Positions 41,420-58,236 of a DNA stretch of 64,000 nucleotides are shown here, piece by piece. Below the pieces are notes generated by a model. That model ran no database searches. It was not told the DNA's origin and worked only from the letters and a program-made list of their open reading frames with translations. The stretch comes from a virus, in UHGV virus genome UHGV-0113858; one strand, given 5' to 3'. Each line of letters begins with the position of its first letter. Positions within the stretch are counted from its first letter, which is position 1. The translations under genes were made by a program, and so were the position numbers.

Positions 41420-42195
41420 TATTTCTCCTTGCTTTGCAATGGTGTCTTACCTTCAAGGTGATTCTCAACTATCTTGATAAGGCCGGGATTATTAAAGGCA
41501 TCAACAGCTCCGGTACGATATACAAGAACACCCGCATTCTCATACATCATTTGTTCATCATACCTAATAGCAGGATTAACAACAACAACTTTTGTCCCCC
41601 GCATAACCGCAGGGAACAACTCCCAGTTGAAGTTAATAACTGTATTTGAACAGCCTACAACAATTACAAGATCCTGATTTGTCAATGACTCCAAGGTATC
41701 ATTCATAGGGCCATAGGCCGGAGCATTCTCACCAAAGAAAACTACGTTTGGTTTACACCAATGAAATTGGTCGGGGTCTACCTCATCGTAACCGATGTCA
41801 ACCAACTGCTCTTCAGAATCTTCATGGAGCTTGTATCGAATTTCTTTCAGATACCCGTGGATGTAAAGAGTATCTTCTTTAGGGACACCCGCACGTTCCA
41901 GAAGGTCATCAACGTTAGTTGTCATGTTAACAACCTGCCCAGGATAACGTCTGTACCACTCAGCCACGCGAAGATGCGCCGCATTCGGATGTACCGTTGG
42001 TAACTCTGCACGACGCTTGTTATAAAACATGTGCGTTTTATGGTAGAAGTTACCACGGAAGGCGTGTATGTTACAAACCTCCTCAAGGTCGTATTCATCC
42101 CACAGGGCTTTACCAGATTCAGTATCTGTGCGGAATGTACGTACACCACTCTCCGCAGAGAAGCCAGCACCACTTATAACGATAAGACGTCTCAT
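41419..42195 (-). CDS. Sir2-family NAD-dependent deacylase / ADP-ribosyltransferase homologue
   Basis: GAGFSAESGVRTFR, VVFFGE, VVGCS Sir2 motifs. Confidence 0.65.
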   Translation of the reverse strand: MRRLIVISGAGFSAESGVRTFRTDTESGKALWDEYDLEEVCNIHAFRGNFYHKTHMFYNKRRAELPTVHPNAAHLRVAEWYRRYPGQVVNMTTNVDDLLERAGVPKEDTLYIHGYLKEIRYKLHEDSEEQLVDIGYDEVDPDQFHWCKPNVVFFGENAPAYGPMNDTLESLTNQDLVIVVGCSNTVINFNWELFPAVMRGTKVVVVNPAIRYDEQMMYENAGVLVYRTGAVDAFNNPGLIKIVENHLEGKTPLQSKEK

Positions 42196-42424: not shown

Positions 42425-42829
42425 TTACTGTAATTTCAATGAGTTACGCAGACGAAGCTCTTGAGCATCACGAGTTTCCTGCGGAACATTGTGAATAGAA
42501 TCATTACCATGCCTATTCTCGACCACCAAGCTAATAACTTGGTATCCGTGCTCATCAGCAAGGGCAATGTAGGGTTTTAGTTCCTTCTCTGTTGTCGAAG
42601 TGTTGGATACGATAATTTTTGCAATACGGCACACCATAGCCTCACGTACCTGTTCTTGACACCACTTATGAGCAACAGCCATGTTTTCAGGCTTCCAGTC
42701 GTAAACCCCGTCCCGATAATGGTATTTATCGGCCTCAAATACAGGCCATGCTTTACCAGCGATTGTTTCAGCAACTGTAGACTTACCAGCACCAGACACG
42801 CCGCGTAAGATAATCAGAATCTTTTCCAT
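42425..42829 (-). CDS. P-loop polynucleotide 5'-kinase-like protein (Pnk kinase-domain type)
   Basis: GVSGAGKST Walker A then ADKYHYRDG, paralleling T4 Pnk GCPGSGKST...RDDYRQS. Confidence 0.45.
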   Translation of the reverse strand: MEKILIILRGVSGAGKSTVAETIAGKAWPVFEADKYHYRDGVYDWKPENMAVAHKWCQEQVREAMVCRIAKIIVSNTSTTEKELKPYIALADEHGYQVISLVVENRHGNDSIHNVPQETRDAQELRLRNSLKLQ

Positions 42830-42838
42830 CTCTTCTCC

Positions 42839-43183
42839 TCAGTAATTGTTTCTTAAGATCGTAATACGATACTTCGAGAAGCTCTCTTTTGCAAGCATGA
42901 ACTTTTGTGCCGCAGAAGGGTTAGACGTATGGACATAGAGTTTAGCATCATGCACAGGAAGTTTTCCATACACAAGCTTCTCTTCCAAGGCCAACAGGCA
43001 GTCATAGCCCTCCATTTCTGACCCTTCCCCAAGGTCATTATCGAAATGCCACTCTGTGACATAACGATAGAACTTTGACCTGTTGTCCAGAAAGTCCATA
43101 AATTTCTGAGAGGTCTTGAACCACAAGGCATCAGGATACCCGTAGTCTTTTGGATCTCTCAGGTCATCAAGCCAGATAATCAT
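42839..43183 (-). CDS. hypothetical protein with receiver(CheY)-like acidic pocket pattern
   Basis: MIIWLDDLRDP ... HFDNDLG ... VHTS ... K. Confidence 0.25.
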   Translation of the reverse strand: MIIWLDDLRDPKDYGYPDALWFKTSQKFMDFLDNRSKFYRYVTEWHFDNDLGEGSEMEGYDCLLALEEKLVYGKLPVHDAKLYVHTSNPSAAQKFMLAKESFSKYRITILRNNY

Positions 43184-44142
43184 TTTGGAACCCCAACATA
43201 AAAACGACTACCACGATCAAACATGTCTTCGATAGCGAAGTAATCTTCAACAACCTGACGTCGTTTTTGAGAATCCATCGCGGACCAAACATCTTTAGAG
43301 TAATACTCACGAATATGGTCTAGCAACTCGTAATACTCTTCGTCAATACGCTTCTTGGCCTCTTTCGGGTTATCCCAGATCATATCCCACTTGTTATCAC
43401 CTCCACGCATCAGGAATTTCTTCGCCAGGTAATGTGGGGACTTGATTTTCAAAAGTAGTTCGCTATTTTCGTCATCTGTCCCGATATTTCGGACAACAAA
43501 ACCTTCGTGGCTAACAGCATGACTGGCTGCAACGACATCGCCAAATGCACGGACATCCCATTGAGGACGTTTTGCACCGATCACTTCAGCGATGCGATCA
43601 AGTTTGTGCTCTTCAACCATAACACCGTTTAAAGCGAGGTCACGGACACCAATCAGATAAGCACCTTCTTTCTCTTCCACAATATGTGGGTCGCTGCTAT
43701 CGCATATTTCGAAAATGAAAGTGTAATCTTCACGGAAAGAAATCAGATCAAAATTCATTTTTTCGAGGTACTTACGAGCCAATTCTGAAAACTCAGAATC
43801 CAATGTCCCTGTTGTTGAAACGAGAAGCTTGTCTTTGTGTATTGCCGCTGTAGCCATAAAACCATTGACCTTGCGGGAACAAATAACCGGTTTGTCAAGA
43901 GGAAGGTCAGTTCCATTCTCGAAGCGGTTGAAAATCTTAGTGAAAGGCCAGATAATCACGTTGTCTTCTGAATCAACAACCATGCCACGGCACTCAAGCA
44001 GGCGTGGATCAGTATGCCACAGGTTATCCCAGAACACATTGTTCTTATACTTCAGCACAGACAGACCTGCGAACGGGCCTTCGGTGTAAGTCTTTTTGGT
44101 TACCAGTTTTTTAGCGACCAAATCGTCTACGTTGAATTTCAT
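43180..44142 (-). CDS. ATP-dependent nucleic acid ligase-like nucleotidyltransferase, probable RNA ligase
   Basis: motif I SRKVNGF (K-x-N-G) followed by LLVSTTG, reminiscent of T4 Rnl1 KEDGSLVST. Confidence 0.4.
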   Translation of the reverse strand: MKFNVDDLVAKKLVTKKTYTEGPFAGLSVLKYKNNVFWDNLWHTDPRLLECRGMVVDSEDNVIIWPFTKIFNRFENGTDLPLDKPVICSRKVNGFMATAAIHKDKLLVSTTGTLDSEFSELARKYLEKMNFDLISFREDYTFIFEICDSSDPHIVEEKEGAYLIGVRDLALNGVMVEEHKLDRIAEVIGAKRPQWDVRAFGDVVAASHAVSHEGFVVRNIGTDDENSELLLKIKSPHYLAKKFLMRGGDNKWDMIWDNPKEAKKRIDEEYYELLDHIREYYSKDVWSAMDSQKRRQVVEDYFAIEDMFDRGSRFYVGVPK

Positions 44143-44308
44143 GTTCTCTCCTTCGTCTGAGATTTTTCAATAGTTTGAGCACTTCTTTTTGTGCTGATTT
44201 CATTTCACTGTAGTCATCATAGATGCTCAGGTCTAGTTCGTCAACATATTCTTCAAGCTCGCTAATCAAAAAGGCCACGTTATGGATAAGATCAAGATCT
44301 TTTTTCAT
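44111..44308 (-). CDS. hypothetical protein (65 aa)
   Basis: ORF. Confidence 0.3.
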   Translation of the reverse strand: MKKDLDLIHNVAFLISELEEYVDELDLSIYDDYSEMKSAQKEVLKLLKNLRRRREHEIQRRRFGR

Positions 44309-44648
44309 AACCTTCCGCCTGATAATATGTTGTATTATAAGGGGTTTCGATACTGAAGCTTATCTGGCACATCTCCTGAGCAAGATATTTTCCAAGTTCG
44401 ACAGCCATTGATAATATCTCATGCTCCTGACGCTGAAAACGTGGATACTGCATCAACCGCACAGTCATACCATCTTCGACACCACCTGTGTAAACATAGA
44501 TGCATGGAGCAATCTGCACACAAGCACCTTGCATAACCCAATGGCGACACAAATTCTTGGCCTGAGCATAATCCCCGGCAATGTGAATAGTAGCGAAGAA
44601 AGACTTCGCCGTGTTACGTGCTATGAAATTTCGTTCTTTGTTATGCAT
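44292..44648 (-). CDS. hypothetical protein (118 aa)
   Basis: ORF. Confidence 0.35.
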   Translation of the reverse strand: MHNKERNFIARNTAKSFFATIHIAGDYAQAKNLCRHWVMQGACVQIAPCIYVYTGGVEDGMTVRLMQYPRFQRQEHEILSMAVELGKYLAQEMCQISFSIETPYNTTYYQAEGYEKRS

Positions 44649-44649
44649 C

Positions 44650-45246
44650 TTATTCTCCGTGGTCAGCAGTGTAGATTGGTTTTTTGAGGCACATCAGGAC
44701 GGCCTCACGCATCGTCAGAGGACGACCATGAACATCCCAACCTACATCGAGAATACGTCCACCGGGGGCTGTATAGGAGCCGTGGCTATGCCCGTGCAAC
44801 ATAACTGACCCGTGGTGCGCTTTGTTCCACGATGCGAACGGATAGTGAGACATACACACATGCACCTTATCTTTTCCAGTGCTGAAGTTAATCTCTTTAT
44901 AATCAACGACTTCATGACCGAATTCACGGAAGATACGTTTCGTATCTCTGTTGTCATGGTTACCACCAACCAGAATGATCTTTCCGTTGATCTTTTCAAG
45001 GATGTCACGAACGCGAGGCTCCATGTAACGTCCGTAAGCAATCACGAAGTCACCAAGGTGCGCTACGACATCATCTGGTTTAACGTGCTTATTCCAGATT
45101 TCAATCATACCTTCATTCATTGCATACAGACTTTCACGGTCTTCTTTTGGACCGTACAGGTTCTTACGGAATTTATCACACGATGGGAAACCAAGGATGT
45201 TGGTATGATGCCACCAATGCGTGTCTGACGTGACGTGGTCGATCAT
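44650..45246 (-). CDS. calcineurin-like metallophosphoesterase (Ser/Thr phosphatase or 2',3' phosphoesterase type)
   Basis: GD...GNHD...GHSH metallophosphatase motifs. Confidence 0.65.
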   Translation of the reverse strand: MIDHVTSDTHWWHHTNILGFPSCDKFRKNLYGPKEDRESLYAMNEGMIEIWNKHVKPDDVVAHLGDFVIAYGRYMEPRVRDILEKINGKIILVGGNHDNRDTKRIFREFGHEVVDYKEINFSTGKDKVHVCMSHYPFASWNKAHHGSVMLHGHSHGSYTAPGGRILDVGWDVHGRPLTMREAVLMCLKKPIYTADHGE

Positions 45247-46470: not shown

Positions 46471-46495
46471 AACAATCTCCTTTAACATTCCCTAG

Positions 46496-46523
46496 ATTCT
46501 ACACGTTAAAAAGTTCATGTCAA
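46496..46523 (-). promoter_or_regulatory. leftward sigma70-like promoter (TTGACA ... TAGAAT on minus strand)
   Basis: -35 is one arm of the ATGTCAA-CAC-TTGACAT palindrome. Confidence 0.45.
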
Positions 46524-46526
46524 CAC

Positions 46527-46555
46527 TTGACATCATCTTTTCTTCATACGATAAT
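46527..46555 (+). promoter_or_regulatory. rightward sigma70-like promoter (TTGACA-17-GATAAT)
   Basis: -35 is the other palindrome arm. Confidence 0.5.
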
Positions 46556-46586
46556 CCAACGCATCGAGTCACCGATTCTATGATAT

Positions 46587-46602
46587 AGAGTATTTATACT
46601 CT
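46587..46602. promoter_or_regulatory. operator-like palindrome AGAGTAT-TT-ATACTCT
   Basis: perfect 7-bp arms inside the divergent promoter region. Confidence 0.4.
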
Positions 46603-46793
46603 GTAGTAAAAGATCTTGTTTTAGATCTTATGTTTTATTGTTTTTAAAGATCATAAGTTAGTTTAAATGATAAGTTAGTATTGTATTCCTGTTCGGGAAT
46701 AATTAGATATTCCTAATCGGGTATAATTAGAGTTGACAGTGTTGGTTTAGTAGTGTAGCTTCTAGTTATATCTGCTTAGGAATAATTAGGAGA

Positions 46794-47168
46794 TTGGTGG
46801 TGGAGATAAAGATTGGTGAGCACTCGGTTAAAGTACGTGACGGTTCATATGTCACAATACCTACCATGTGGCTTTTCGATGAAAACCTCTCCCCTCAAGA
46901 TTTGCAAAGGCTCGTAAAGTTGTGGTGGAGGTATGATTACTTCAGAAACCTTAACCCAGAGGGTGGTGAAGAAGTCTTCTTTCCCTCGCAGAAGTCTTTG
47001 TGCCATCTGTTTGGGTTGAGTGAAAAATCACAACCGAAGGTTTCTGAGTTCCTCTCTAAAATGGAGAAGCTCGGCTACATTCGAAGAATACGTTCTGGAT
47101 TTAAGGATTCCTCTGGGAATGCGAAGCCAAGACATTACATCATTGTTAACAGAGGTACAAATGCTTGA
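46794..47168 (+). CDS. winged-helix DNA-binding protein (124 aa)
   Basis: KSLCHLFGLSEKSQPKVSEFLSKMEKLGYIRR wHTH-like; first gene after the promoter hub. Confidence 0.4.
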   Translation: MVVEIKIGEHSVKVRDGSYVTIPTMWLFDENLSPQDLQRLVKLWWRYDYFRNLNPEGGEEVFFPSQKSLCHLFGLSEKSQPKVSEFLSKMEKLGYIRRIRSGFKDSSGNAKPRHYIIVNRGTNA

Positions 47169-47724
47169 AATTCTAAAATCAAAAGAACTAGGGGCATCTG
47201 AAAAGGTTATCGTCATGTTCATGGGTCTGAATGGTAATGGTGTATATACCTATCAAGATTTTATGGACTCCACAGGGTTGAGTAGGGCAACTGTTGGCAG
47301 GTCTCTTTCAAAACTATATGATGATGGTTGGATCGATAAGAAAACTACCATCTCCCCGTCAGGTGCAGAAAGTATAGAGTACGTATTGCTACTGCAAAAG
47401 GCTTCTGTTGCTGAGAGACTGAACAGACCGTGCTTCGTATACGTGCAACGACTGACAGGCCCAGGCCTTACAGTAGGTAAGGTGGGAATCGCGTTTAATG
47501 TTTTTGAGAGAATGCGTCAACAAGGGAAAAGTAGTCTTTTCCGTCATGAGCTTGTTTACTCAAGGTTGTTTGAGTGCTATGCTGATGCTTCAAACGTTGA
47601 GAAACAAGTTCTACGAGAACTTCCACAATTTATTTGTGAAAAGGATTGGTTACCAGATGGTTACACCGAAACAATACATGTAGATGATATATTACGCGCT
47701 ATAAAAATTATTGAGGAGAAATGA
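47160..47724 (+). CDS. winged-helix DNA-binding protein (188 aa)
   Basis: ATG overlaps upstream stop (ATGCTTGA); TYQDFMDSTGLSRATVGRSLSKLYDDGWI wHTH-like. Confidence 0.4.
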
Positions 47725-47725
47725 A

Positions 47726-48526
47726 ATGAGTTTAGAACTTCGTCTGAACAAACTGGTAGTTCCTGTCGATCACTTTACGTTCAAAGGTGGTGAAGAACAG
47801 GTTAGAATCGATATGGCGCATACTCCGAAAGGTGGTATTGGTTTCGTTGATATCACTGCTAAAATCAAGAATTCCACCGATGTCATGGCGTTAGCTATGT
47901 TGGTGGATGCATGTTCTCGTCTGGAAGGACTGCATAACCATGCTGAGTTTACCCTGCATCTGCCATACATCCCGTATGCACGTCAGGACCGTGTGATGAA
48001 TCCGGGTGAAGCGTTATCCATCAAAGTTTTCGCAAATATCGTCAACTCTCTTGGGTTTGACAAGATCATTGTCGATGATCCGCACAGCGATGTCTCCGCC
48101 GCGTTGCTTAACAACGTTAAAATCCGTGGTCAGGACGCTCTTATTGCGGAATTCCATGAAGGTCTTGCCGGAAAAGATGTTGTTATCGTTGCCCCTGACG
48201 CCGGAGCACGTAAAAAAGCTCAGAAAGTTTCCGATCGACTTCGCCTTCCTCTGGTGGAAGCTGGAAAAGTGCGCGACCTGAAGACAAATGAAATTACCGG
48301 GACTGCTGTTTTCGGTGATGTTGAAGGACGTGAGTGTGTTATTGTCGATGATATCTGCGATGGTGGTCGCACATTCATCGCCCTGGCACAAGCATTGAAG
48401 GCAAAAGGAGCAAAACGTGTTATTCTTTACGTAACTCACGGTATCTTTTCCTTCGGTAAAGAAGTTATCTACGAAGGCGGCGTTGATGAAATCTACGCGT
48501 ACCACGACTGGACCGAAAACTTTTAA
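47726..48526 (+). CDS. prs: ribose-phosphate pyrophosphokinase (PRPP synthetase)
   Basis: PYIPYARQDR and VDDICDGGRT PRPP-binding motifs; GAGGAG RBS before ATG 47726 (ORF track starts at TTG 47711). Confidence 0.8.
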   Translation: MSLELRLNKLVVPVDHFTFKGGEEQVRIDMAHTPKGGIGFVDITAKIKNSTDVMALAMLVDACSRLEGLHNHAEFTLHLPYIPYARQDRVMNPGEALSIKVFANIVNSLGFDKIIVDDPHSDVSAALLNNVKIRGQDALIAEFHEGLAGKDVVIVAPDAGARKKAQKVSDRLRLPLVEAGKVRDLKTNEITGTAVFGDVEGRECVIVDDICDGGRTFIALAQALKAKGAKRVILYVTHGIFSFGKEVIYEGGVDEIYAYHDWTENF

Positions 48527-48587
48527 TTGACAAATAAATAAGTGGGCGTACAATCGCCCTATTAAACAAACAAAGGAGAAACAAAAC

Positions 48588-50273
48588 ATGCTTAATCAAG
48601 AAAGTCCTATCCTGTTCGCTGACTTTTACAAACCTTCACACATCTCCATGTATGATAAACGTTCTGAAATTGTTCAGGATAACATGACCCCTCGTAATGC
48701 GAAGCACTTCATCCACTTCGCTGATAACGACCAGCGTGTCATGTTTGCTGGCCTTCAGGGATTTATTAAGTGGTTCCTTATCGACATGTTCAACAATAAC
48801 TTCTTCAACCTCCCGAAAGAAGAAGCGGTTGCTGATTATCGTGAGGTTTGCGACTCCAGCATTGGCATTGGCATGGTAGAAACCTGGGGCTTTGAGGCTC
48901 TTCATGATCTCGGTTATCTTCCTCTGGAAATCCGTGCTCTTCCAGAAGGAACGCTTTCTCCGGTTCAGGTCCCAATGTTTACAATCCAGAATACGCACCC
49001 GGATTTTTACTGGTTGCCTAACTTCCTGGAAAGTGTGATCTCCGCAGAAACCTGGAAAACTATCACAACTGCAACGACGTTCTGGCAGTATCGCAAGCTG
49101 TCTGAAAAATGGGCTGCTGAGACCTGTGATAACAACGACCATGTTGCATTCCAGAACCACTGCTTCGCCTATCGCGGTGAAGCTGGTACTCACGACGCAG
49201 CACAGAGCGAATTTGGTCAACTGATCAACTCTATGGGTACAGACACTATCCCAGCGATTCTGTATGCTCGCCGTTATTACAACATGAAAGGTAAGTTCGT
49301 TGCTGGTTCTATTCCTGCATCTGAACACTCTGTTGCAACCACGAACATCGGTTTCATTGTTGGTCGTTTACAAGGTGAAAACCCGGACCTGACTCTGGAC
49401 GAAGCACGTTTCTTGGCTGAAGTTGAATTCATGAAACGCTACATTACGGAAATTTTCCCTAAAGGTTTTGTTTCCTACGTGGCAGACAGTTATGACTTCT
49501 GGGCGATTATCACCAAAGCAGCAGCGATCCTGAAACAGGACATCATGGCCCGTGATGGTCGTGTTGTTTTCCGTCCTGACTCCGGCATTCCTGAACATAT
49601 CATTGCAGGCTATCGTAGCCTCGGTGAGTTTGATGACTGGTCTGATGCACACTCAGCACTACAGGAAGATTCAAATTCAGAAGTTGCCAAGATTGAAGGT
49701 AAATACTACCGGATTCTTGTTGACGATGAAGATAATGCCTACTTCGACTTCCAACCTTCAGGTCTTGAAGAGCATGAAGTTAAGGGTGCAATTCAGTGTA
49801 TGTGGGAAATCTTTGGTGGTGAAGTTAACTCCAAGGGTTACAAAGTTCTGGACAGTCATGTAGGTCTGATCTATGGTGATTCCATCACTGTTGCTCGTGC
49901 AAAAGACATCTTTGAACGTCTGAAAGATAAAGGCTTTGCATCCAGCAATATCGTGTACGGTGTTGGTTCCTTTACCACCCAGTACACAACCCGTGATTCA
50001 CTGGGTATGGCTGTGAAAGCAACTGGCGCTGTGATTGATGGTCAGCAGATCATGGTTGTCAAAGAGCCTAAGACTGACCTCGGTAAGAAATCTGCGAAAG
50101 GTTTCCTCAAAGTTGTTCGCAACATGTTCGGTCAGTTAGAACTGATTGACAATTGTCAGCTTGAAGATGTACAGTCTGACGATAACGAACTGCGTCGTGT
50201 GTTCTACAACGGTAAACTTATTGTCGATGAAGATCTTACAACGATTCGTGAACGCGCAGCCGCTCAACTGTAA
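48588..50273 (+). CDS. nadV: nicotinamide phosphoribosyltransferase (NadV-type NAMPT)
   Basis: 561-aa NAPRTase/NAMPT-family protein; AAGGAG RBS. Confidence 0.75.
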   Translation: MLNQESPILFADFYKPSHISMYDKRSEIVQDNMTPRNAKHFIHFADNDQRVMFAGLQGFIKWFLIDMFNNNFFNLPKEEAVADYREVCDSSIGIGMVETWGFEALHDLGYLPLEIRALPEGTLSPVQVPMFTIQNTHPDFYWLPNFLESVISAETWKTITTATTFWQYRKLSEKWAAETCDNNDHVAFQNHCFAYRGEAGTHDAAQSEFGQLINSMGTDTIPAILYARRYYNMKGKFVAGSIPASEHSVATTNIGFIVGRLQGENPDLTLDEARFLAEVEFMKRYITEIFPKGFVSYVADSYDFWAIITKAAAILKQDIMARDGRVVFRPDSGIPEHIIAGYRSLGEFDDWSDAHSALQEDSNSEVAKIEGKYYRILVDDEDNAYFDFQPSGLEEHEVKGAIQCMWEIFGGEVNSKGYKVLDSHVGLIYGDSITVARAKDIFERLKDKGFASSNIVYGVGSFTTQYTTRDSLGMAVKATGAVIDGQQIMVVKEPKTDLGKKSAKGFLKVVRNMFGQLELIDNCQLEDVQSDDNELRRVFYNGKLIVDEDLTTIRERAAAQL

Positions 50274-50312
50274 TCAATAAGCCCCTTCTGGGGCTTTTCT
50301 GATAGGTACACT

Positions 50313-51656: not shown

Positions 51657-51729
51657 CGTTCAGTAGCTCAGTTGGTAGAGCAGGTTCTTCATACGGACAA
51701 GGTCAGTGGTTCAATTCCACTCTGAACGA
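51657..51729 (+). tRNA. tRNA with CAT anticodon (Met or lysidine-Ile); G27-A43 mismatch
   Basis: hand-folded cloverleaf: acceptor CGTTCAG/CTGAACG, D GCTC/GAGC, loop TTCATAC, T AGTGG-TTCAATT-CCACT. Confidence 0.55.
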
Positions 51730-51732
51730 TAA

Positions 51733-51810
51733 GGCCCTCAAGCTCATTAGGTATGAGCAATCGACTCATAATCGAGAGGTAGGCAGGTTCGAATCCTCCG
51801 GGGGCCACCA
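51733..51810 (+). tRNA. tRNA with CAT anticodon (second copy), encoded CCA
   Basis: acceptor GGCCCTC/GGGGGCC, anticodon loop CTCATAA, T loop TTCGAAT. Confidence 0.6.
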
Positions 51811-51820
51811 ATTAAAAATG

Positions 51821-51849
51821 TTGACGAGGATATCTGATTGAGTTAGTAT
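51821..51849 (+). promoter_or_regulatory. sigma70-like promoter TTGACG-17-TAGTAT overlapped by inverted repeat GAGGATA/TATCCTC
   Basis: upstream of a basic-protein gene with strong RBS. Confidence 0.5.
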
Positions 51850-51902
51850 CCTCATGAACATAAACGGGACAAATTCCCAAATAAAATGCAAAGGAGAAAA
51901 TT

Positions 51903-52214
51903 ATGACTAAGAAAAATACTGCTAAGAAAGTATCCGCCATCGATGCTATCAAACAGCCTTTCCAGTTTGAGTCGAAGTCTACTCAGACTCATTCTGCGCC
52001 GCACGATGTGCGTCTCGGTGGTGTAGAGAAAACCGTATCAGTTTTCGATCGCCGTAAAGGCGAGTATAAATCCGAAACCCGGATTGAAGGTGGTCAGATT
52101 ATCTCTGCTTCTTACCGCATCCGCACAGGCAAGACCAAGCGTGAACGTGCTGGTAAGGTAAAGGAAACTAAGGTTGTTGAAACCGTAGCCCCGAAGAGTA
52201 AAAAGAAAAAATAA
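51903..52214 (+). CDS. small lysine-rich basic protein (103 aa), possibly nucleic-acid binding
   Basis: AAAGGAGA RBS; K/R-rich termini. Confidence 0.45.
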   Translation: MTKKNTAKKVSAIDAIKQPFQFESKSTQTHSAPHDVRLGGVEKTVSVFDRRKGEYKSETRIEGGQIISASYRIRTGKTKRERAGKVKETKVVETVAPKSKKKK

Positions 52215-52275
52215 TTTCTCCGGCATGGAGAATGACGATTCCGTGAAACGTCTTTAAAAACACGGGTATGTTTTC

Positions 52276-52351
52276 GGGGTATTAACACAGCGGTTAGTGT
52301 AGCGGCCTCTTAAGCCGAAGGTCGAAGGTTCGAATCCTTCATGCCCCACCA
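52276..52351 (+). tRNA. tRNA-Lys (CTT), encoded CCA
   Basis: acceptor GGGGTAT/ATGCCCC, anticodon loop CTCTTAA, T GAAGG-TTCGAAT-CCTTC. Confidence 0.65.
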
Positions 52352-52479
52352 AGTTTGAAATGAGGGAGATACGGGTTCGACTCCCGTTCTTGCTGGCCCG
52401 GCTCGCGTAGTGGCACAGGGCGATAGCTTAAATGGACGAAAGTGCTCTCGTTTCAAATCTAAACCAAAAGGAGAACGAA

Positions 52480-52668
52480 ATGTTCGGATCCCTGTTACGT
52501 ATGGCTGGCGATATTGTTGGTACTGCTGTTGTTGTCACGGCAACTGTTGCAGAACCTTTTGTAGATGTAGCCGCAGAAGTTCTTGACGCCGCTGATGAGA
52601 TTATCGTATCACCTACCGCAGACGTCGTTGGTGAAGTTTGTGACTCCATTAAGGACGTTGTACGATGA
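52480..52668 (+). CDS. hypothetical protein (62 aa)
   Basis: AAAGGAGA RBS before internal ATG of ORF 52432. Confidence 0.35.
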   Translation: MFGSLLRMAGDIVGTAVVVTATVAEPFVDVAAEVLDAADEIIVSPTADVVGEVCDSIKDVVR

Positions 52669-52802
52669 GTGGCGGTGTTATCTTTATCATCATGTCAGTG
52701 ATCTCTTTCCTGCTTGTTCTTTGGTATTATTGGTCATGGTTTGAAAACAACCCTACCACCGAAGAAATAATCAAAGATTCGCTTGACAAACACAATCTGT
52801 AA
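52665..52802 (+). CDS. small membrane peptide (45 aa)
   Basis: ATGA overlap, single TM helix. Confidence 0.3.
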   Translation: MSGGVIFIIMSVISFLLVLWYYWSWFENNPTTEEIIKDSLDKHNL

Positions 52803-52842
52803 GTGTAGTATTTAAACCTAATTTAACGCAAAGGAGAACTTA

Positions 52843-53454
52843 ATGACTGATTCTAAAACTGTAATTTCCGTAACTGAACGTGCCACTAAAGCAGTAACCA
52901 CTGCCGCTACTGGTCTGACTAAAGTAGTCGCTGAACTGCAATCTCTGGCAGAAGGGTCTGAAAAGATCAGTCAGGAAATTCAGTTTAAGCAGCAGGAACT
53001 GGGACAAATTGAAGTTCAGTTCAACGAAAAACTGGCAGAAGAAAAATCCAAGCTGAAGATTAAAGTTCTGGAAAACGAAGATTCCGTTCTGAACTCTATC
53101 CTGAAAGCTCGCGGCCTTGTAGCTGTAGAACCGGGTGTTGTTGAAGACCTTCGTGCAGAGCTGGCGATCTCTCAGCAGAACAATGCTGAAGCTGTAGAAA
53201 GCGCAGTTGCCGACGTTAAACGTAGCGCTGCAATCGAACTGAATGCGGTTAAGGCAAATCTGGAATCTGCTCACAAGGTTGCAATTGCAGAACTTACTGC
53301 GAATAGCAAGGCTAAGGATGACCGTATTGCAATGCTGACAGAACAGCTTGAAGCAGCGCGTGGTGATCTGAAGGCTGAACGCGAAACCCGTCTGGAAATC
53401 GCAAAAGCTGATGCTAACCGCCAGGGCGTTGTTGTCAACACTGGCAAAAACTAA
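52843..53454 (+). CDS. coiled-coil protein (203 aa), probably abundant
   Basis: AAAGGAGA RBS; Ala/Glu/Lys heptad-rich. Confidence 0.45.
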   Translation: MTDSKTVISVTERATKAVTTAATGLTKVVAELQSLAEGSEKISQEIQFKQQELGQIEVQFNEKLAEEKSKLKIKVLENEDSVLNSILKARGLVAVEPGVVEDLRAELAISQQNNAEAVESAVADVKRSAAIELNAVKANLESAHKVAIAELTANSKAKDDRIAMLTEQLEAARGDLKAERETRLEIAKADANRQGVVVNTGKN

Positions 53455-53462
53455 TGCGTAGT

Positions 53463-53490
53463 GCCGACACGGATGTCGGCAAATATTTGA
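53463..53490 (+). terminator. possible terminator/attenuator hairpin GCCGACA-CGGA-TGTCGGC
   Basis: 7-bp stem then AAATATTT. Confidence 0.35.
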
Positions 53491-53528
53491 AGTAACTCAA
53501 ATTTTAAATTTCATGAGAGGAGAATTCT

Positions 53529-54176
53529 ATGTCTACTAAGATGTCTGTAACCCGCGCTCTGGCTACCCTGACCAAGGTTGAGGAAAAGATTCAGAAGCGT
53601 ATCGAAGCGCTGAACACGATTCACATCGCGAAAGGCACTGACGCAAACCGTCAGATCCCAGGCTCTATCCAGAGCGTTGAGGACTTCGAGAAATCTGCTC
53701 AGGCAGACTTCCAGGGTGTTCAGGATCTTCTGGCTGTTCGCGACGACCTGAAGGCGAAAGTTGTTCAGTCAAACGCTGTAACAAAAGTTGAGATCGCTGG
53801 CGAGTCTATGACCGTAGCTCAGGCGATTGAACGTAAACGCACCATCGTTTTCAAAGAGCTTCTGCTTGGAAAACTGAAGTCTCAGTATAATCATGCTCAG
53901 GTTCGCCTGAACCGTGATACACAGGAATTCGAAGCGAAGCTTGAAGCTGCTCGTGCTCCATATGTCCAACGTGATAAAGCGCCAGACGCTGCACAGTTGG
54001 CTGTAGTAGAAGCGCCAGTTCGTAGCATGGGAACTCCTTCCATTGTCGACCCACTGGGTCTGGCAGATCGCATTCGTTCTCTGGAAGCAGAGATTGAAGA
54101 CTTCAAGTCTAACGTTGACTTTGTTCTTTCCGAGTCAAATGCACGGACTGAAGTAGAGATTGAAGGATCAATCTAA
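53529..54176 (+). CDS. coiled-coil protein (215 aa), probably abundant
   Basis: GAGAGGAGA RBS; heptad-rich. Confidence 0.45.
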   Translation: MSTKMSVTRALATLTKVEEKIQKRIEALNTIHIAKGTDANRQIPGSIQSVEDFEKSAQADFQGVQDLLAVRDDLKAKVVQSNAVTKVEIAGESMTVAQAIERKRTIVFKELLLGKLKSQYNHAQVRLNRDTQEFEAKLEAARAPYVQRDKAPDAAQLAVVEAPVRSMGTPSIVDPLGLADRIRSLEAEIEDFKSNVDFVLSESNARTEVEIEGSI

Positions 54177-54454
54177 AATATTTGCAGGAATTCTTGATTA
54201 ACATCTTGTAATTCCTGTGAATAGCTGGTAAAGTTTTTAAATGCTGTTTTTGGTTAGCGAAGTCAGAAACATCTTGCCTCTACCGGGGCCGGAGGTTAAA
54301 CTGCTCCGAACATAATCATATAGGATGATACTTAAACGTATGTTTCCGTCAGTCCGCACAATGATGCGGTTTGATCGAAATTGTCGAATCGCGAATTCGA
54401 AAGACTTCAACATTCAGCATTCAAAGATTATCGTTCAAAGCTTAATGTTTAAAC

Positions 54455-54483
54455 TTGAAACTTCTAAACCATAAAGCTAAAAT
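54455..54483 (+). promoter_or_regulatory. sigma70-like promoter TTGAAA-17-TAAAAT
   Basis: upstream of the tRNA run starting at 54578. Confidence 0.4.
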
Positions 54484-54577
54484 TTCTTTGATTACTTAAA
54501 TCCTGGGTATAGGATCTTAGCTCCCAAGATATGGCTAACTGACTCCTCCAGGCTGTTAATCGGAAACAGCATTTCTT

Positions 54578-54653
54578 GCTCGTATAGCTCAGTTGGTAGA
54601 GCAACTCCCTTGTAAGGAGAAGGTCGTGGGTTCAAGTCCTACTGCGAGCACCA
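54578..54653 (+). tRNA. tRNA-Thr (TGT), encoded CCA
   Basis: acceptor GCTCGTA/TGCGAGC, anticodon loop CTTGTAA, T GTGGG-TTCAAGT-CCTAC. Confidence 0.7.
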
Positions 54654-54659
54654 AACAAT

Positions 54660-54734
54660 TTCTCGATAGCTTACTTTGGTTAGAGCGGTCCCACGATAGG
54701 GACGGTACAGGTTCGATTCCTGTTCGAGAAGCCA
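54660..54734 (+). tRNA. tRNA of uncertain identity with atypical anticodon arm (perfect GTCCC/GGGAC stem around a 6-nt loop ACGATA, or a 7-nt loop with mispairs)
   Basis: good acceptor TTCTCGA/TCGAGAA, D and T arms, encoded CCA. Confidence 0.4.
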
Positions 54735-54736
54735 AT

Positions 54737-54845
54737 GCAGGGTAGGCGGTTTGTCAACCGCGAGGTCCATCCAGACCTGAAAAATATGCCAGAACTAACA
54801 GTACGGCTAAATACATAGGTGGTTAGATTCCACCACCCTGCTCCA
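54737..54845 (+). tRNA. 109-nt tRNA-like RNA: canonical acceptor, D and T arms plus CCA, but ~40 extra nt between anticodon region and T arm
   Basis: acceptor GCAGGGT/ACCCTGC, D GCGG/CCGC, T GGTGG-TTAGATT-CCACC. Confidence 0.35.
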
Positions 54846-55027
54846 AATCTATTCTGCGAGGTTCTGAAACACTTAAAATCTCCTGCATCTAGTGGGGTGT
54901 GATCTCTGTGTCGGCTTTGATATCAAGTTGATGAAAGGGATGGCGTAGGCTCTTCTTCGCAAGTAGAGGCGCTTCGGAGAGGCAACGGCGGTTGTCAGGA
55001 CATCGGGACTTCACAAAATAGATTTCT

Positions 55028-55113
55028 GCGGGATTGGTGGTATTGGCAGTACACACGAGGCTTAAGACTTCGTAGGCCTCTGGGCCTTGAGGGTTCGAAT
55101 CCCTCATCCCGCA
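55028..55113 (+). tRNA. tRNA-Leu (TAA), long variable arm
   Basis: acceptor GCGGGAT/ATCCCGC, loop CTTAAGA, variable GGCC-TCTG-GGCC, T GAGGG-TTCGAAT-CCCTC. Confidence 0.65.
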
Positions 55114-55122
55114 TCAGTTTAA

Positions 55123-55204
55123 GAGGGCGTATCTCAACGGGCTTCTAACCCGTCGTTAATCGAGTAATTGGAGTATGCGGGTTCGAATCCTGCCGCCTTC
55201 GCCA
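55123..55204 (+). tRNA. aberrant tRNA-like gene with Arg (TCT) anticodon arm; no normal D arm and 23 nt before T arm
   Basis: acceptor GAGGGCG/CGCCTTC (G-U), perfect ACGGG-CTTCTAA-CCCGT, T GCGGG-TTCGAAT-CCTGC, CCA. Confidence 0.35.
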
Positions 55205-55320
55205 AATTCACAGGACAGCCGGGACGGGTTTACTCCGAGCTGTGGAAGCGTCGAAAGACTATAGGACACGTCTTGACCCGAATGTGTGGGAGCGAATTGA
55301 AATAATCGGGTCCCCCAAAA

Positions 55321-55394
55321 GCACGGTTGCTGGAGTGGCAACAGCTTCGGCTGCAAACCGAATGTCAGGTGTTCGATTCACCTACCGTGCTCCA
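55321..55394 (+). tRNA. tRNA-Cys (GCA), encoded CCA
   Basis: acceptor GCACGGT/ACCGTGC, TTCGG-CTGCAAA-CCGAA, T AGGTG-TTCGATT-CACCT. Confidence 0.65.
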
Positions 55395-55433
55395 AGTTGT
55401 TGAATATTTTTATAAAAAATGATAAAATGGCCC

Positions 55434-55462
55434 TTGACAGATAAATTTAAATCTGATAACAT
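55434..55462 (+). promoter_or_regulatory. sigma70-like promoter TTGACA-17-TAACAT
   Basis: upstream of ORF 55480. Confidence 0.4.
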
Positions 55463-55479
55463 TAATAAGTGGGGTTATT

Positions 55480-55830
55480 ATGGCAGTAAAACAACAACTT
55501 ACAAAGCGTCGTAGAGGAAAAGGTAGACCCCTTAAAGAAGAGTCTAATGCTATTCAGCTTGAGAAGAATATCCTTGACCTTAAGACCAATATGATTGCTA
55601 TGATTCCTGATGCTCATAAGGTATTGAAAGATCTTATGACAAGTGCCACAACAAAGGACAATATCAGGGAAAATATTGCTCGATTTGTAATTGAGAAAGG
55701 TGAACAAATGCTTTCTGATTACTTCGATGAAGAGAATGAAGAAGCTGAAACAACTAATGTTGATGATAAGAAATCTACTCCTATGAGTAAGCCATTCACA
55801 ACAGATATTGTTCAGTTCAAACAAGGTTAA
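55480..55830 (+). CDS. hypothetical protein (116 aa) with basic N-terminus and acidic C-terminus
   Basis: ORF with GGGG RBS inside the tRNA island. Confidence 0.4.
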   Translation: MAVKQQLTKRRRGKGRPLKEESNAIQLEKNILDLKTNMIAMIPDAHKVLKDLMTSATTKDNIRENIARFVIEKGEQMLSDYFDEENEEAETTNVDDKKSTPMSKPFTTDIVQFKQG

Positions 55831-55832
55831 TT

Positions 55833-55916
55833 GGCTCGTTGGCAGAATGGCTATTGCAGCGGATTGTAAATCCGTGCCCTTCGGGGTTCCTGGTTCGAGT
55901 CCAGGGTGGGCCACCA
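55833..55916 (+). tRNA. tRNA-Tyr (GTA), long variable arm, CCA
   Basis: GCGGA-TTGTAAA-TCCGT, variable GCCC-TTC-GGGG, T CCTGG-TTCGAGT-CCAGG. Confidence 0.6.
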
Positions 55917-55922
55917 ATTAAT

Positions 55923-55998
55923 GGGAGTATAGCTCAGTCAGTAGAGCGCTCGACCGATAATCGAGAGGTCGCAGGAGCAAAGCCTGCTACTCCCACCA
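55923..55998 (+). tRNA. tRNA-Ile (GAT) with non-canonical T loop AGCAAAG and C33
   Basis: acceptor GGGAGTA/TACTCCC, CTCGA-CCGATAA-TCGAG, CCA. Confidence 0.45.
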
Positions 55999-56087
55999 TT
56001 CTCCGTCATAGTACCGCATCCTGACGTTTCGGATTGCATAATCAAGGTACTGGGAACTAGTAAGATACTATGACGGGATCGATTTAA

Positions 56088-56164
56088 AGCGTTATTAGTG
56101 TTAGCGGTCCAGCACTCCGTCCTTCCAAGTCGGAAGCATCGGTTCGAATCCGATATAACGCTCC
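56088..56164 (+). tRNA. tRNA-Gly (TCC), U-U mismatch in anticodon stem, CCA
   Basis: acceptor GCGTTAT/ATAACGC, CCGTC-CTTCCAA-GTCGG, T ATCGG-TTCGAAT-CCGAT. Confidence 0.6.
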
Positions 56165-56247
56165 AAATACGCCCCTAAACTGATGAACGTCTGCGCGGCT
56201 GGAAACACCCACTCAATAGTTCAGATACCCAGGGGCAATAAACAAAT

Positions 56248-56323
56248 GCTCCTATCGGCTAAATGGACAGGCCGTCAGACTTTCAATCTGGAAATCCGAG
56301 TTCGATCCTCGGTGGGAGTACCA
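56248..56323 (+). tRNA. tRNA-Glu (TTC), CCA
   Basis: acceptor GCTCCTA/TGGGAGT (G-U pairs), TCAGA-CTTTCAA-TCTGG, T CCGAG-TTCGATC-CTCGG. Confidence 0.6.
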
Positions 56324-56328
56324 AATAA

Positions 56329-56440
56329 TGGGTATCTAAGGCGAATTGGAAAACGCCCGGTGAAGTGGGTGCGCACCTTGTAGCTCACTGGCATACTTGC
56401 TGAGGTTCGTTCGAATCGGACTGATGCCCACCAAACAATG
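56329..56440 (+). tRNA. 112-nt tRNA-like RNA (second long element): acceptor, D and T arms plus CCA with ~37 extra nt centrally
   Basis: acceptor GGGTATC/GATGCCC, D GGCG/CGCC, T GTTCG-TTCGAAT-CGGAC. Confidence 0.35.
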
Positions 56441-56444
56441 TGCG

Positions 56445-56520
56445 GGTAACTTAATTGCTCCGGGAGCAAGCTGGTCTCCAAAGCCAGTCGTAAGGGGTTC
56501 GACTCCTCACCTTCATGCCA
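56445..56520 (+). tRNA. tRNA-like/pseudo-tRNA with Trp (CCA) anticodon arm and T arm but no acceptor pairing
   Basis: CTGGT-CTCCAAA-GCCAG; preceded by hairpin TTGCTC-CGG-GAGCAA; T-like AGGGG-TTCGACT-CCTCA; ends ...GCCA. Confidence 0.3.
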
Positions 56521-56675
56521 GATAATGGGGGCGACCGGATGTTGAAAATGACTATGATCTACCGCTGCAACGGGAAATCTTGTCGGTCATAAGTAAGCAT
56601 GGCGGCAACAAAATAAGCTGAGGATTGCAGTCCGATACTTAGCCTGGCTCGGTTTCAGGCGCCCTCACCGATTGT

Positions 56676-56751
56676 AGGGAGATGGTGTAATAGGTTAGCA
56701 CACGGGTCTTTGAAATCCGTAGTTCAGGTTCAAGTCCTGATCTCCCTGCCA
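56676..56751 (+). tRNA. tRNA-Gln (TTG), CCA
   Basis: acceptor AGGGAGA/TCTCCCT, CGGGT-CTTTGAA-ATCCG, T TCAGG-TTCAAGT-CCTGA. Confidence 0.7.
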
Positions 56752-56945
56752 AGTTTGAGTGTTTTCTTTTGAGAATACTCATGCGTGGCCTAAGCATTTA
56801 TCAGATGATGTTCAACCTGTGACGTTGAGGAAGTGGGAGCGATACCCACAGGTCACCCCAATTTGCAGATACGTGATTATCTCTATCTTCCCACGTCATG
56901 TGTTCTAGTCGAGATTTTCGTTTGTACGATATCTGCCGCGAATTT

Positions 56946-57036
56946 GGTGGAATGGTCGAGAGGTTTAAGACAGCACCTTGGAAAGGTGTAGGCCCCCAAA
57001 AGGGGTCCGTAGGTTCGAATCCTACTTCCACCGCCA
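56946..57036 (+). tRNA. tRNA-Ser (GGA), long variable arm, CCA
   Basis: acceptor GGTGGAA/TTCCACC, GCACC-TTGGAAA-GGTGT, variable GGCCCC-CAAAA-GGGGTC, T GTAGG-TTCGAAT-CCTAC. Confidence 0.65.
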
Positions 57037-57197
57037 CTTTATGGAGGATTTATGCAGAAACTTTTGCGTTGCAAGAAAGTGTTTGGACGCTGTAGGCTCC
57101 ACGGTAGTAACTGTGGTGTTGCAGAAGAAATTCAATCCGTCCCTATTACTCGTGCGAAAGAAAAAGCAGATCTTCGTAAAGAAATTAAAGAACAATT

Positions 57198-57291
57198 GGA
57201 AGATTAACCCTAATCAGGTAAGGGATCTCTTTGCTAAAGAGACAGTAGCTCCGAAAGGGGTGTGCGAGTTCAAGTCTTGCATCTTCCACCA
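57198..57291 (+). tRNA. tRNA-Ser (GCT), long variable arm, CCA
   Basis: acceptor GGAAGAT/ATCTTCC, TCTCT-TTGCTAA-AGAGA, T GCGAG-TTCAAGT-CTTGC. Confidence 0.65.
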
Positions 57292-57315
57292 AAACAACAA
57301 GGAGGAACAAATCGA

Positions 57316-57762: not shown

Positions 57763-57828
57763 CCGAGCGGTCAGGCATTCGCCTTTTAAGCGAAGAGACG
57801 ATGGGTTCAAATCCCTCCCTTCCCACCA
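57753..57828 (+). tRNA. tRNA-Lys (TTT)-like, weak T stem, CCA
   Basis: acceptor GGGTAGG/CCTTCCC (one mismatch), D GCC-GAGCGGTCA-GGC, TTCGC-CTTTTAA-GCGAA. Confidence 0.45.
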
Positions 57829-57888
57829 AATTGAATCGGTTAAAATAATTCTTGCAAAAGGTTGTTTTCACTGGTAAAGTATTAAAAT

Positions 57889-57973: not shown

Positions 57974-57980
57974 AATTTAT

Positions 57981-58057: not shown

Positions 58058-58236
58058 ATTTGATATGTTGATGTAAATTGCCGGAAGGCACTCAAAATGA
58101 GTTCGACGTATCAAACCAAAGTAAACTGTGGAACAATCTTCAGGACATCCATTAACGGACCCTGCAACCCACAGTAATGAATTAGCTAGCCAGCAATACC
58201 AGTTGTAAGATCTGGGACAATTAAAACTTTCACCCT

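Follow-up and report, generated by a model that had tools for sequence, protein, structure and literature searches.

A probable NARP1-type NAD+ reconstitution operon in a Klebsiella myophage of the Mydovirus/KB57/Ro1 group

The gene pair and its surroundings

The window analysed is a 64-kb stretch of the ~145-kb genome of a Klebsiella myophage belonging to the Mydovirus/KB57/Ro1 group. It includes two genes on the same strand, separated by 61 nucleotides, which encode proteins of 266 and 561 amino acids (Table 1). Pfam identifies Pribosyltran_N, Pribosyltran and Pribosyl_synth domains in the first and NAPRTase (E 7.8e-27) in the second. The NCBIfam matches are TIGR01251 ribP_PPkin (E 3e-49) and NF006629/PRK09198 (E 3e-144), respectively. 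The open reading frames, Pfam and NCBIfam agree with an earlier, sequence-only reading of this DNA, which had placed at 47726-50273 a Prs-family protein with the motif PYIPYARQDR and a NAMPT-family protein, and had named Pribosyltran and NAPRTase as the domains to look for. The Pfam and NCBIfam names, like the GenBank names in related phages, fit a canonical salvage pathway.

The same reading placed the pair after a divergent promoter hub and two winged-HTH proteins. Back-to-back sigma-70-like sites are indeed present in a region conserved in phage Mydo ('promoter' is used here in the sense of a consensus match only), but the winged-HTH matches are all below threshold. ORF1 has a weak HTH_5 match (E 0.003, below the cut-off). 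Its start is more likely GTG 46797/46800, which follows AGGAG (46788-46792), than TTG 46794. ORF2 has sub-threshold matches to a winged-HTH at its N-terminus and to MUG113/T5orf172-like domains (GIY-YIG clan) at its C-terminus. No similarity was found between ORF1 and Mydo gp177. A match to PF24409 ('wHTH-PRTase_assc') in the upstream genes was also considered but is weak (~19 bits, cut-off 27), and no match of this type occurs in the genes upstream of the Bas63, SPbetaL1, ICP1, Staph and PaC11 loci. The two upstream genes are absent or replaced in Mydo. Since they are swapped in this way, they are a variable upstream module outside the core of NAD+ reconstitution pathway 1 (NARP1), the system to which we assign the pair below.

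The pair is probably transcribed from the rightward site at 46527, with an end at ~50280-50300, where the putative transcription unit is closed by a terminator-like hairpin. A 45-nucleotide segment containing this hairpin has a dG of -16.3 kcal/mol (z -3.25), and none of 200 shuffled sequences is equally stable. Transcription might possibly also start at the promoter-like site which fills the gap between the two genes; a small hairpin (GGGCG-TACAAT-CGCCC) carries its -10 element in the loop. As judged from these promoter-like sites, expression would be early.

Table 1. Features of the locus and of related genes in the window (nucleotide positions in the window unless residues are given)
Feature	Position	Strand	Details
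NADAR protein	35664-36218	-	E 1.8e-33
SIR2-family protein	41419-42195	-	E 1.5e-22
Metallophosphoesterase	44650-45246		In RNA-repair cassette
Divergent sigma-70-like promoter pair	46496-46555		Back-to-back, in intergenic region 46489-46793
Leftward promoter match	46523-46496	-	TTGACA-16-TAGAAT, 11/12 positions
Rightward promoter match	46527-46555	+	TTGACA-17-GATAAT, 11/12 positions
Upstream ORF1	46794-47168	+	124 aa if from TTG 46794
Upstream ORF2	47161-47724	+	187 aa from ATG 47161; stop 1 nt before adps ATG
adps ribosome-binding site	47713-47718	+	GAGGAG; ATG 47726 lies 1 nt past the upstream stop
Prs-like ORF (adps)	47711/47726-48526	+	266 aa from ATG 47726; contains LPYIPYARQDR
adps key residues	RQDR 86-89, DPHS 118-121, K181, DDICDGGRT 208-216
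Sigma-70-like match in adps-namat gap	48527-48554	+	TTGACA-16-TACAAT, 11/12 positions; consensus match only
namat ribosome-binding site	48573-48578	+	AAGGAG
NAMPT-like ORF (namat)	48588-50273	+	561 aa
Namat clamp loop	T34-P-R-N-A-K39-H40-F41
Intrinsic-terminator-like hairpin	50279-50300	+	AAGCCCC-UUCU-GGGGCUU then UUCU; 6 nt past namat stop

Assignment of the 266-residue protein to Adps

Trees were constructed by NJ with bootstrap from MAFFT alignments of few taxa, using verified outgroup sequences. The 266-residue protein falls into one clade with the validated Adps of Bas63, SPbetaL1 and FADO (100% bootstrap), and the Prs of E. coli, B. subtilis and human are separate from it. In the Adps clade, 97% of members have a Namat gene in their immediate vicinity, as is the case here.

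The Prs-type catalytic residues, whose loss had been considered as a possible objection to a Prs-family enzyme, are retained. These include the ATP/Mg site (RQDR 86-89, H120, D158 and DD 208-209) and the catalytic lysine K181, equivalent to K162 of SPbetaL1 and K194 of E. coli Prs. The four canonical Prs features tested (N-terminal helix, DLHA, DTxGT and C-terminal helix) are all absent or altered. Both terminal helices are lost, as in Adps and unlike Prs; DPHS replaces DLHA, an Adps-type deviation; and DGGRT stands where Prs has the ribose-5-phosphate loop DTxGT, as it does in Bas63 (the segment DDICDGGRTF is identical in Bas63 Adps). The KxRDxxT[GN]xI loop, an Adps-specific deviation from Prs, is also present. 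Among the NCBIfam models scanned, the cut-off is reached only for the broad TIGR01251 subfamily model (167.6 bits, cut-off 113); for all more specific Prs models the score falls far short (for example, 135.9 against 297 bits). The protein is the shortest Adps of the set compared and lacks the C-terminal segment found in those of Bas63 and SPbetaL1.

Validated Adps enzymes do not use ribose-5-phosphate but pyrophosphorylate ADP-ribose (ADPR) (Osterman et al. 2024, 10.1101/2024.02.11.579819). By analogy, and in line with its altered 5-phosphate loop, the 266-residue protein would use ADPR rather than ribose-5-phosphate as pyrophosphate acceptor.

Assignment of the 561-residue protein to Namat

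In a search of the PDB the best matches of the 561-residue protein are 9W5X/9W5W (E 5e-124), which are SPbetaL1 Namat; human NAMPT gives E 5e-48. Entries 9KE8/9KEO (E 3e-106) also match; they have no aromatic clamp (GAQTYQRNTRD), and a tblastn search for their source found no matching phage in the phage collection used. In the tree, the protein lies within the clade of the validated Bas63, SPbetaL1 and FADO Namats (100% bootstrap, NJ), with the KVP40-like, T4-like (Nmnat-associated) and human Nampts set apart; the T4-like outgroup was confirmed as NARP2. Identity is 43-46% to Namats against 29-30% to Nampts, and in tblastn identity falls off steeply from the first group to the second.

The published Namat signature is GSX-phi-X-phi-X-phi-TRD whose positions 3 and 7 are aromatic. 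Here it reads GSFTTQYTTRD (G460-D470), in which F462 and Y466 are aromatic, and 119 of 120 close homologues retain it. In Nampts, GGGLLQ... stands where Namats have this aromatic clamp. At position 5, where published Namats are 'most often' aromatic, the protein has Thr464. The Namat clamp loop supplies a stacking residue, its third residue being Arg, Lys or Tyr. In the present protein, N37-A38-K39 followed by H40-F41 resembles the Lys type of Bas63, but since a Lys occupies the aligned position in human and KVP40-like Nampt as well, the sequence by itself does not discriminate. The catalytic core (D12, Y14, F193, R196, D219, H247, R329, D331 and G430-D431-S432) is conserved, and all residues used to define it in SPbetaL1 numbering (F189, R192, D215, the catalytic His, R306 and D308) are matched. 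The residue preceding F193 is Cys192 (HCF), where others have Asp. Two insertions, at about residues 254-280 and 342-390, are common to this protein and the Namats of Bas63 and PaC11.

SPbetaL1 Namat uses ADPR-PP by preference, with NAD+ as the direct product (Osterman et al. 2024, 10.1101/2024.02.11.579819). We infer by homology that the 561-residue protein likewise favours ADPR-PP over PRPP and yields NAD+ directly. There is a slim chance that the clade-specific short Adps and the Namat carrying Thr464 and Cys192 have a shifted substrate range.

Comparison with known systems

The NARP1 of Escherichia phage JohannRWettstein (Bas63; gp79-gp80, 10.1101/2024.02.11.579819) likewise has adps before namat, a short gap lying between them. 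The two systems share clades (100% bootstrap), both Namat insertions, the Lys-type clamp loop and a GS[FY]T.QY.TRD helix. However, identity is only 38% (Adps) and 43% (Namat), the Adps described here is ~25 residues shorter at its C-terminus, clamp position 5 is Thr instead of Tyr, and the Lys is followed by His40, where Bas63 has Trp, as the candidate for stacking. The neighbourhood also differs, the Bas63 pair being located among nrd and rII genes.

For the NARP1 of Bacillus phage SPbetaL1 (genes 190-191), both biochemistry (Osterman 2024) and Namat structures (9W5X/9W5W; Lan et al. NAR 2026, PMC12774641) are available. Every residue that contacts NAM, NMN or AMP is either retained or exchanged conservatively (S190 to A, A362 to S), and F392, Y396, T398, R399 and D400 of SPbetaL1 correspond to F462, Y466, T468, R469 and D470. 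The SPbetaL1 Namat is smaller (491 amino acids, without the two insertions), and its clamp loop uses Arg40 directly where the present protein has Lys39-His40. Its genes overlap, whereas here a gap with a promoter-like site intervenes.

Two extended forms have the Adps and Namat core in common with the present pair: NARP1-AP (Adps-Adpp-Namat) of Vibrio phage Gary (Osterman et al. 2026, 10.64898/2026.01.28.702374) and the RyDEP-containing NARP1 of mycobacteriophage DyoEdafos (10.64898/2026.05.28.727677). Unlike these, the phage described here shows neither a Macro-domain (Adpp) phosphatase nor a RyR-domain glycosidase in the flanking ORFs or in any other ORF of at least 80 amino acids in the window. 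NARP2 (KVP40 Nampt with Nmnat) and cellular NAMPT and Prs belong to the same superfamilies and share the catalytic core chemistry. They differ in that NARP2 and cellular NAMPT form another clade with GGGLLQ and no aromatic clamp, NARP2 has an Nmnat partner for which there is no counterpart in the window, and cellular Prs has the DLHA, DTxGT and terminal helices missing here.

Other NAD+-related genes in the window

All ORFs of at least 80 amino acids in the window were scanned with Pfam (E<=1e-3). As the sequence-only reading had noted, there is no NMN adenylyltransferase (NMNAT) among them: no CTP_transf_like or NMNAT domain was found. No Nudix domain was found in the window either. The suggestion that an unrecognised NMNAT might be hidden among the NTase-fold proteins does not hold, these ORFs being an RlaP-type and a CCA-adding (PolyA_pol+HD) protein and not NMNAT-like.

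The window also contains genes for a SIR2-family protein and an ADP-ribose hydrolase-like NADAR protein, 5-12 kb from the pair and on the opposite strand, and an RNA-repair cassette with a kinase, cREC_REC (a cyclic-phosphate-processing domain), Rnl1 and a metallophosphoesterase. The latter was considered as an analogue of Adpp but rejected as the primary reading because it lies within this cassette.

Proposed pathway

The gene pair very probably constitutes a NARP1 operon, on the evidence of clade membership, signature residues and gene order. In the proposed pathway, a host effector of the SIR2, TIR or SEFIR type would cleave NAD+ to ADPR and nicotinamide. Adps would then move pyrophosphate from ATP onto the 1'' position of ADPR, yielding ADPR-PP, and Namat would exchange this pyrophosphate for nicotinamide by NAMPT-type chemistry (phospho-His247, R329, D219). 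ADPR-PP would be chosen over PRPP by an adenine clamp composed of F462 and Y466 together with K39/H40 and T468-R469-D470 of the partner protomer. The product would be NAD+ itself, so that neither an NMN adenylyltransferase nor a host salvage enzyme would be needed. The enzymatic activities and the anti-defence effect are extrapolated from homologues with 32-46% identity. Thr464, Cys192 and the short Adps are departures that weigh against the assignment. A role against NAD-depleting immunity, as proposed in the sequence-only reading, is likely and agrees with these NARP1 homologues.

Among the alternatives, the one that survives best, though still unlikely, is that the pair has a housekeeping role, recycling NAD+ and ADPR for NAD-using enzymes that the phage itself encodes, such as the SIR2-family protein, instead of or besides counter-defence. 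The phage does encode SIR2-family and NADAR proteins, but their genes lie at a distance from the pair on the other strand and, in Bas63, ADPR-PP is seen only when a defence system is present. We see only a slim chance for a related idea: that some of the SIR2-family, NADAR and RNA-repair proteins release or dephosphorylate ADPR derivatives, thereby feeding Adps and extending NARP1 to aRES- or DarT-type defences. Candidate derivatives would be ADPR-1''P, ADPR-cyclic-P and ADP-ribosylated nucleic acid. The idea that NARP1 may not act alone comes from the absence of the Macro-domain phosphatase.

A canonical salvage pathway is very improbable. This would proceed from Prs (making PRPP) through a NadV-type NAMPT (making NMN) to NAD+ by host NadR/NadD (or PncC with NadD/NadE), and is close to the sequence-only reading, which named the enzymes PRPP synthetase and NadV-type NAMPT and, as one of two options, had host NadR/NadD finish the pathway. 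It is what the Pfam, NCBIfam and GenBank names of these proteins and their relatives imply, and Namat homologues can still turn PRPP into NMN in vitro, with a rate about half that of human NAMPT. Both proteins, however, belong to the Adps and Namat clades and not to those of Prs and Nampt, with the DTxGT loop changed to DGGRT and an adenine clamp present. In homologues, Prs activity of Adps was not detected, and Namat given PRPP together with ADPR-PP made NAD+ only. In addition, SIR2-HerA is still overcome by Bas63 when the host has been deleted for both pncC and nadR (Osterman et al. 2024, 10.1101/2024.02.11.579819), which argues against the host as finisher. The puzzle of the missing NMNAT dissolves because the Adps and Namat homologues make NAD+ directly. 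A minor NMN route may exist beside NAD+ formation.

There is next to no probability that the system is of the NARP2 type, with a phage Nmnat located elsewhere: the scan covered 64 of ~145 kb, but the 561-residue protein lies outside the Nmnat-associated Nampt clade (with just 29-30% identity), its neighbour is an Adps-clade gene, no NMNAT occurs in window ORFs of at least 80 amino acids, and Osterman et al., who came across no phage having the two pathways together, class this phage group as 'Adps-associated'.

Prior listing and significance

NARP1 is present in many phages, and this phage group is already in the original tables. Osterman et al. (Supplementary Tables 1 and 2) record the Adps of Ro1, Mydo, KB57 and PVPSE1 as having a Namat within 10 genes ('Yes') and their Namats as 'Adps-associated'. 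These proteins are near-identical to those of the pair: the Adps described here is 99.2% identical to the Ro1 protein and the Namat 99.8% identical to that of Mydo. The pair is therefore an ordinary copy of the catalogued NARP1.

This Klebsiella phage group, which is used in therapy-oriented work, is predicted to resist NAD-depleting defences of the SIR2, TIR and SEFIR types. As no accessory phosphatase is present, it is predicted to be sensitive to aRES, an ADPR-1''-phosphate-forming defence known from K. pneumoniae; by the published logic, the plain NARP1 of this phage should not counter it.

The assignment also corrects a common misannotation. In phages, the combination 'Ribose-phosphate pyrophosphokinase' and 'nicotinamide phosphoribosyltransferase' usually represents Adps and Namat, a self-sufficient pathway for rebuilding NAD+ that explains the absence of an NMNAT.

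Identification of the gene pair

The window derives from a Klebsiella myophage of the Mydovirus/KB57/Ro1 group (Vequintavirinae), and many deposited phages are 92-98% identical over 5 kb around the two genes called here adps and namat (see table). In those phages they are annotated as 'ribose-phosphate pyrophosphokinase' and 'nicotinamide phosphoribosyl transferase'. The gene pair, its families and its coordinates had been correctly noted in the sequence-only reading, and both Pfam and NCBIfam support the Prs and NAMPT superfamilies for the 266-aa and 561-aa proteins. ATG 47726 is most plausibly the adps start, with GAGGAG at 47713-47718 and the stop of the upstream gene 1 nt before it.

Judged by sequence, the pair is already known, as NARP1 (NAD+ reconstitution pathway 1), since Osterman et al. 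(bioRxiv 10.1101/2024.02.11.579819) list near-identical proteins of Raoultella phage Ro1 (99.2% identity for Adps) and Proteus phage Mydo (99.8% for Namat). Their Supplementary Tables 1 and 2 record the Adps of Ro1, Mydo, Klebsiella phage KB57 and Salmonella phage PVPSE1 as 'Namat within 10 genes' Yes and the Namat of the same four phages as 'Adps-associated'.

Table: Features of the window (nucleotide positions)
Feature	Position	Strand	Remarks
RlaP-type NTase	12089-13162		farther from RNA-repair-like cassette
CCA-adding enzyme with HD domain	15221-16468		farther from RNA-repair-like cassette
AAA_33 kinase	42425-42829	-	RNA-repair-like cassette
cREC_REC 'cyclic-phosphate processing receiver' domain	42839-43183	-	RNA-repair-like cassette
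T4 Rnl1-type RNA ligase	43180-44142	-	RNA-repair-like cassette
Metallophosphoesterase	44650-45246	-	RNA-repair-like cassette; weak match
adps (Prs-like)	47726-48526	+	266 aa; contains LPYIPYARQDR
Third sigma-70-like site	48527-48554		fills adps-namat gap; 11/12 match
namat (NAMPT-like)	48588-50273	+	561 aa; AAGGAG at 48573-48578
Stable hairpin and U-tract	50279-50300		3' of namat

Family placement

We compared the two proteins with three experimentally validated NARP1 operons (Bas63 gp79-80, SPbetaL1 190-191 and FADO 78-77) and four more Adps-Namat pairs. The outgroups were E. coli Prs, B. subtilis Prs and human PRPS1 for Adps, and a KVP40-like Vibrio phage Nampt, a T4-like Klebsiella phage Nampt and human NAMPT for Namat. 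The human NAMPT, B. subtilis Prs and human PRPS1 sequences are 100% identical to PDB chains, and the T4-like Klebsiella phage Nampt is near-identical to a protein classed 'Nmnat-associated' by Osterman et al. The earlier identification of the enzymes as Prs and a NadV-type NAMPT is not borne out: neighbour-joining of MAFFT alignments places both window proteins within the Adps and Namat clades with 100% bootstrap. The window Namat is 43-46% identical to Namats versus 29-30% to Nampts, and tblastn against about 1,900 phage records gives a sharp identity step between the two groups.

Among solved structures, the 561-aa protein is closest to 9W5X/9W5W (E 5e-124; human NAMPT, ~5e-48), deposited by Lan et al. 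(NAR 2026, PMC12774641) as SPbetaL1 phage Namat; in tblastn against phage records their aligned chain is 100% identical to SPbetaL1. NCBIfam calls the protein a 'nicotinate' PRTase, but this is a naming matter because the solved relatives are all NAMPT-type. PDB 9KE8/9KEO, a solved 'nicotinamide phosphoribosyltransferase', is nearer phage Namats (58% to SPbetaL1) than NAMPT; it has no aromatic clamp, with GAQTYQRNTRD at that place, and was absent from the phage collection searched.

The window Adps retains the RQDR, His and Asp active-site residues of Prs, and its K181 aligns with E. coli Prs K194 and SPbetaL1 K162, the catalytic lysine targeted by mutation in the study of Osterman et al. All deviations of Adps from Prs in the alignment are also present in it. 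It lacks the N-terminal and C-terminal helices of Prs, has DPHS where Prs has DLHA, carries a KxRDxxT[GN]xI flexible loop and has DGGRT instead of the ribose-5-phosphate 5-phosphate loop DTxGT; the ten residues DDICDGGRTF are the same in Bas63 Adps. A short C-terminus is peculiar to its clade.

Namat is defined by a two-part 'selectivity clamp', a helix motif and a variable loop with Arg, Lys or Tyr at its third position (Lan et al., PMC12774641). In the window protein the helix reads G460-S-F462-T-T-Q-Y466-T-T468-R469-D470 and the loop T-P-R-N-A-K39-H40-F41; at the position of K39, human and KVP40-like Nampt align a Lys as well. Where Namat has the helix motif, the aligned Nampts read GGGLLQ... 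The motif is kept in 119 of 120 close homologues, and all catalytic-core residues named in the structure paper (F193, R196, D219, H247, R329, D331) are present. Clade-specific features are Thr at position 5 of the clamp and HCF instead of HDF. The protein is 70 residues longer than SPbetaL1 Namat owing to two insertions (aa ~254-280 and ~342-390), which are not new because Bas63 and Pseudomonas phage C11 Namats carry both. In Vibrio phage ICP1 isolate 2018_Mat_167 (~2500-2650) the Namat frame is broken by an in-frame stop at about codon 29, and a shortened CDS is all that the record annotates; its NARP1 may be inactivated.

Predicted pathway and counter-defence

In validated systems, Adps converts ADPR and ATP to ADPR-PP, with no Prs-type product in the assay, and Namat joins ADPR-PP to nicotinamide; offered ADPR-PP and PRPP together, Namat gives NAD+ as sole product (Osterman et al., bioRxiv 10.1101/2024.02.11.579819). 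By homology, the 266-aa protein would form ADPR-PP from ADPR and ATP and the 561-aa protein would use it with nicotinamide to make NAD+. The sequence-only reading had rightly found no NMN adenylyltransferase in the window, but its pathway required one from the host or a hidden gene. Validated NARP1 makes NAD+ directly from ADPR-PP without this enzyme, which removes the puzzle.

When every window ORF of at least 80 aa was searched with Pfam, none gave a CTP_transf_like, Nudix, Macro or RyR domain, and on this basis the operon is a plain NARP1 and not NARP2 (Nampt and Nmnat), NARP1-AP (with a Macro-domain Adpp) or the RyDEP-extended form (with a RyR-domain glycosidase).

The role first proposed, countering NAD-depleting immunity, holds for NARP1 homologues, although the enzymes and pathway given for it were wrong. 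NARP1 is effective against type I Thoeris, DSR1, DSR2, SIR2-HerA and SEFIR and ineffective against type II Thoeris, and Bas63 overcomes SIR2-HerA even in a pncC nadR double-deletion host (Osterman et al., bioRxiv 10.1101/2024.02.11.579819). By published logic, a plain NARP1 should not counter aRES, a system encoded by K. pneumoniae that leaves ADPR-1''-phosphate.

Expression signals and upstream module

The intergenic region 46489-46793 contains two back-to-back sigma-70-like sites (11/12 positions each), both kept in Mydo. From the promoter consensus matches, early expression of adps-namat is plausible. A perfect small hairpin (48544-48559, GGGCG-TACAAT-CGCCC) has as its loop the -10 hexamer of the promoter-like sequence before namat; it may be without significance.

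The module separating adps from the conserved divergent promoters differs between close relatives. From ~46655 to 47725 the window has ORF1 (HTH-like) and ORF2 (wHTH with a MUG113/T5orf172 (GIY-YIG-clan)-like domain); Mydo (6640-7066 of its record) has only one gene there, an unrelated wHTH gene (DUF6945; its annotation is 'replication initiation protein'). ORF1 and ORF2 are outside the NARP1 system, and the module resembles a mobile or regulatory cassette. The sequence GG[A/T]ATAATTAG is present in three exact copies (46696-46706, 46720-46730 and 46779-46789), embedded in longer repeats of ~20 bp (TTCCT..TCGGGWATAATTAGA); within the window these copies are confined to just upstream of ORF1, and Mydo lacks them. 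The last copy overlaps the RBS of ORF1, and one of the three contains a perfect TATAAT. They could serve as operators for the neighbouring HTH proteins or as additional promoters.

Other genes in the window

A NADAR-domain protein (PF08719, E 1.8e-33) is encoded at 35664-36218 (-). Among the members of the NADAR family are ADP-ribose hydrolases that undo DarT-type DNA ADP-ribosylation, and the phage may thus carry here another counter-defence gene, its second, that is related to ADP-ribose. A SIR2-family protein (PF02146, E 1.5e-22; 41419-42195, -), annotated in Mydo as similar to T5.102, belongs to an NAD-consuming enzyme family, here in a phage also predicted to rebuild NAD+. An RNA-repair-like cassette occupies 42425-45246 (-). 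From ~1.4 kb downstream of namat, 21 tRNA genes are arrayed at 51657-59045 (+), that at 54660-54734 with an odd anticodon call. The 498-aa product of the gene at 8487-9983 (+) carries four CapR-homology domains (PF21817, E 1e-48); the neighbouring genes are on the opposite strand.
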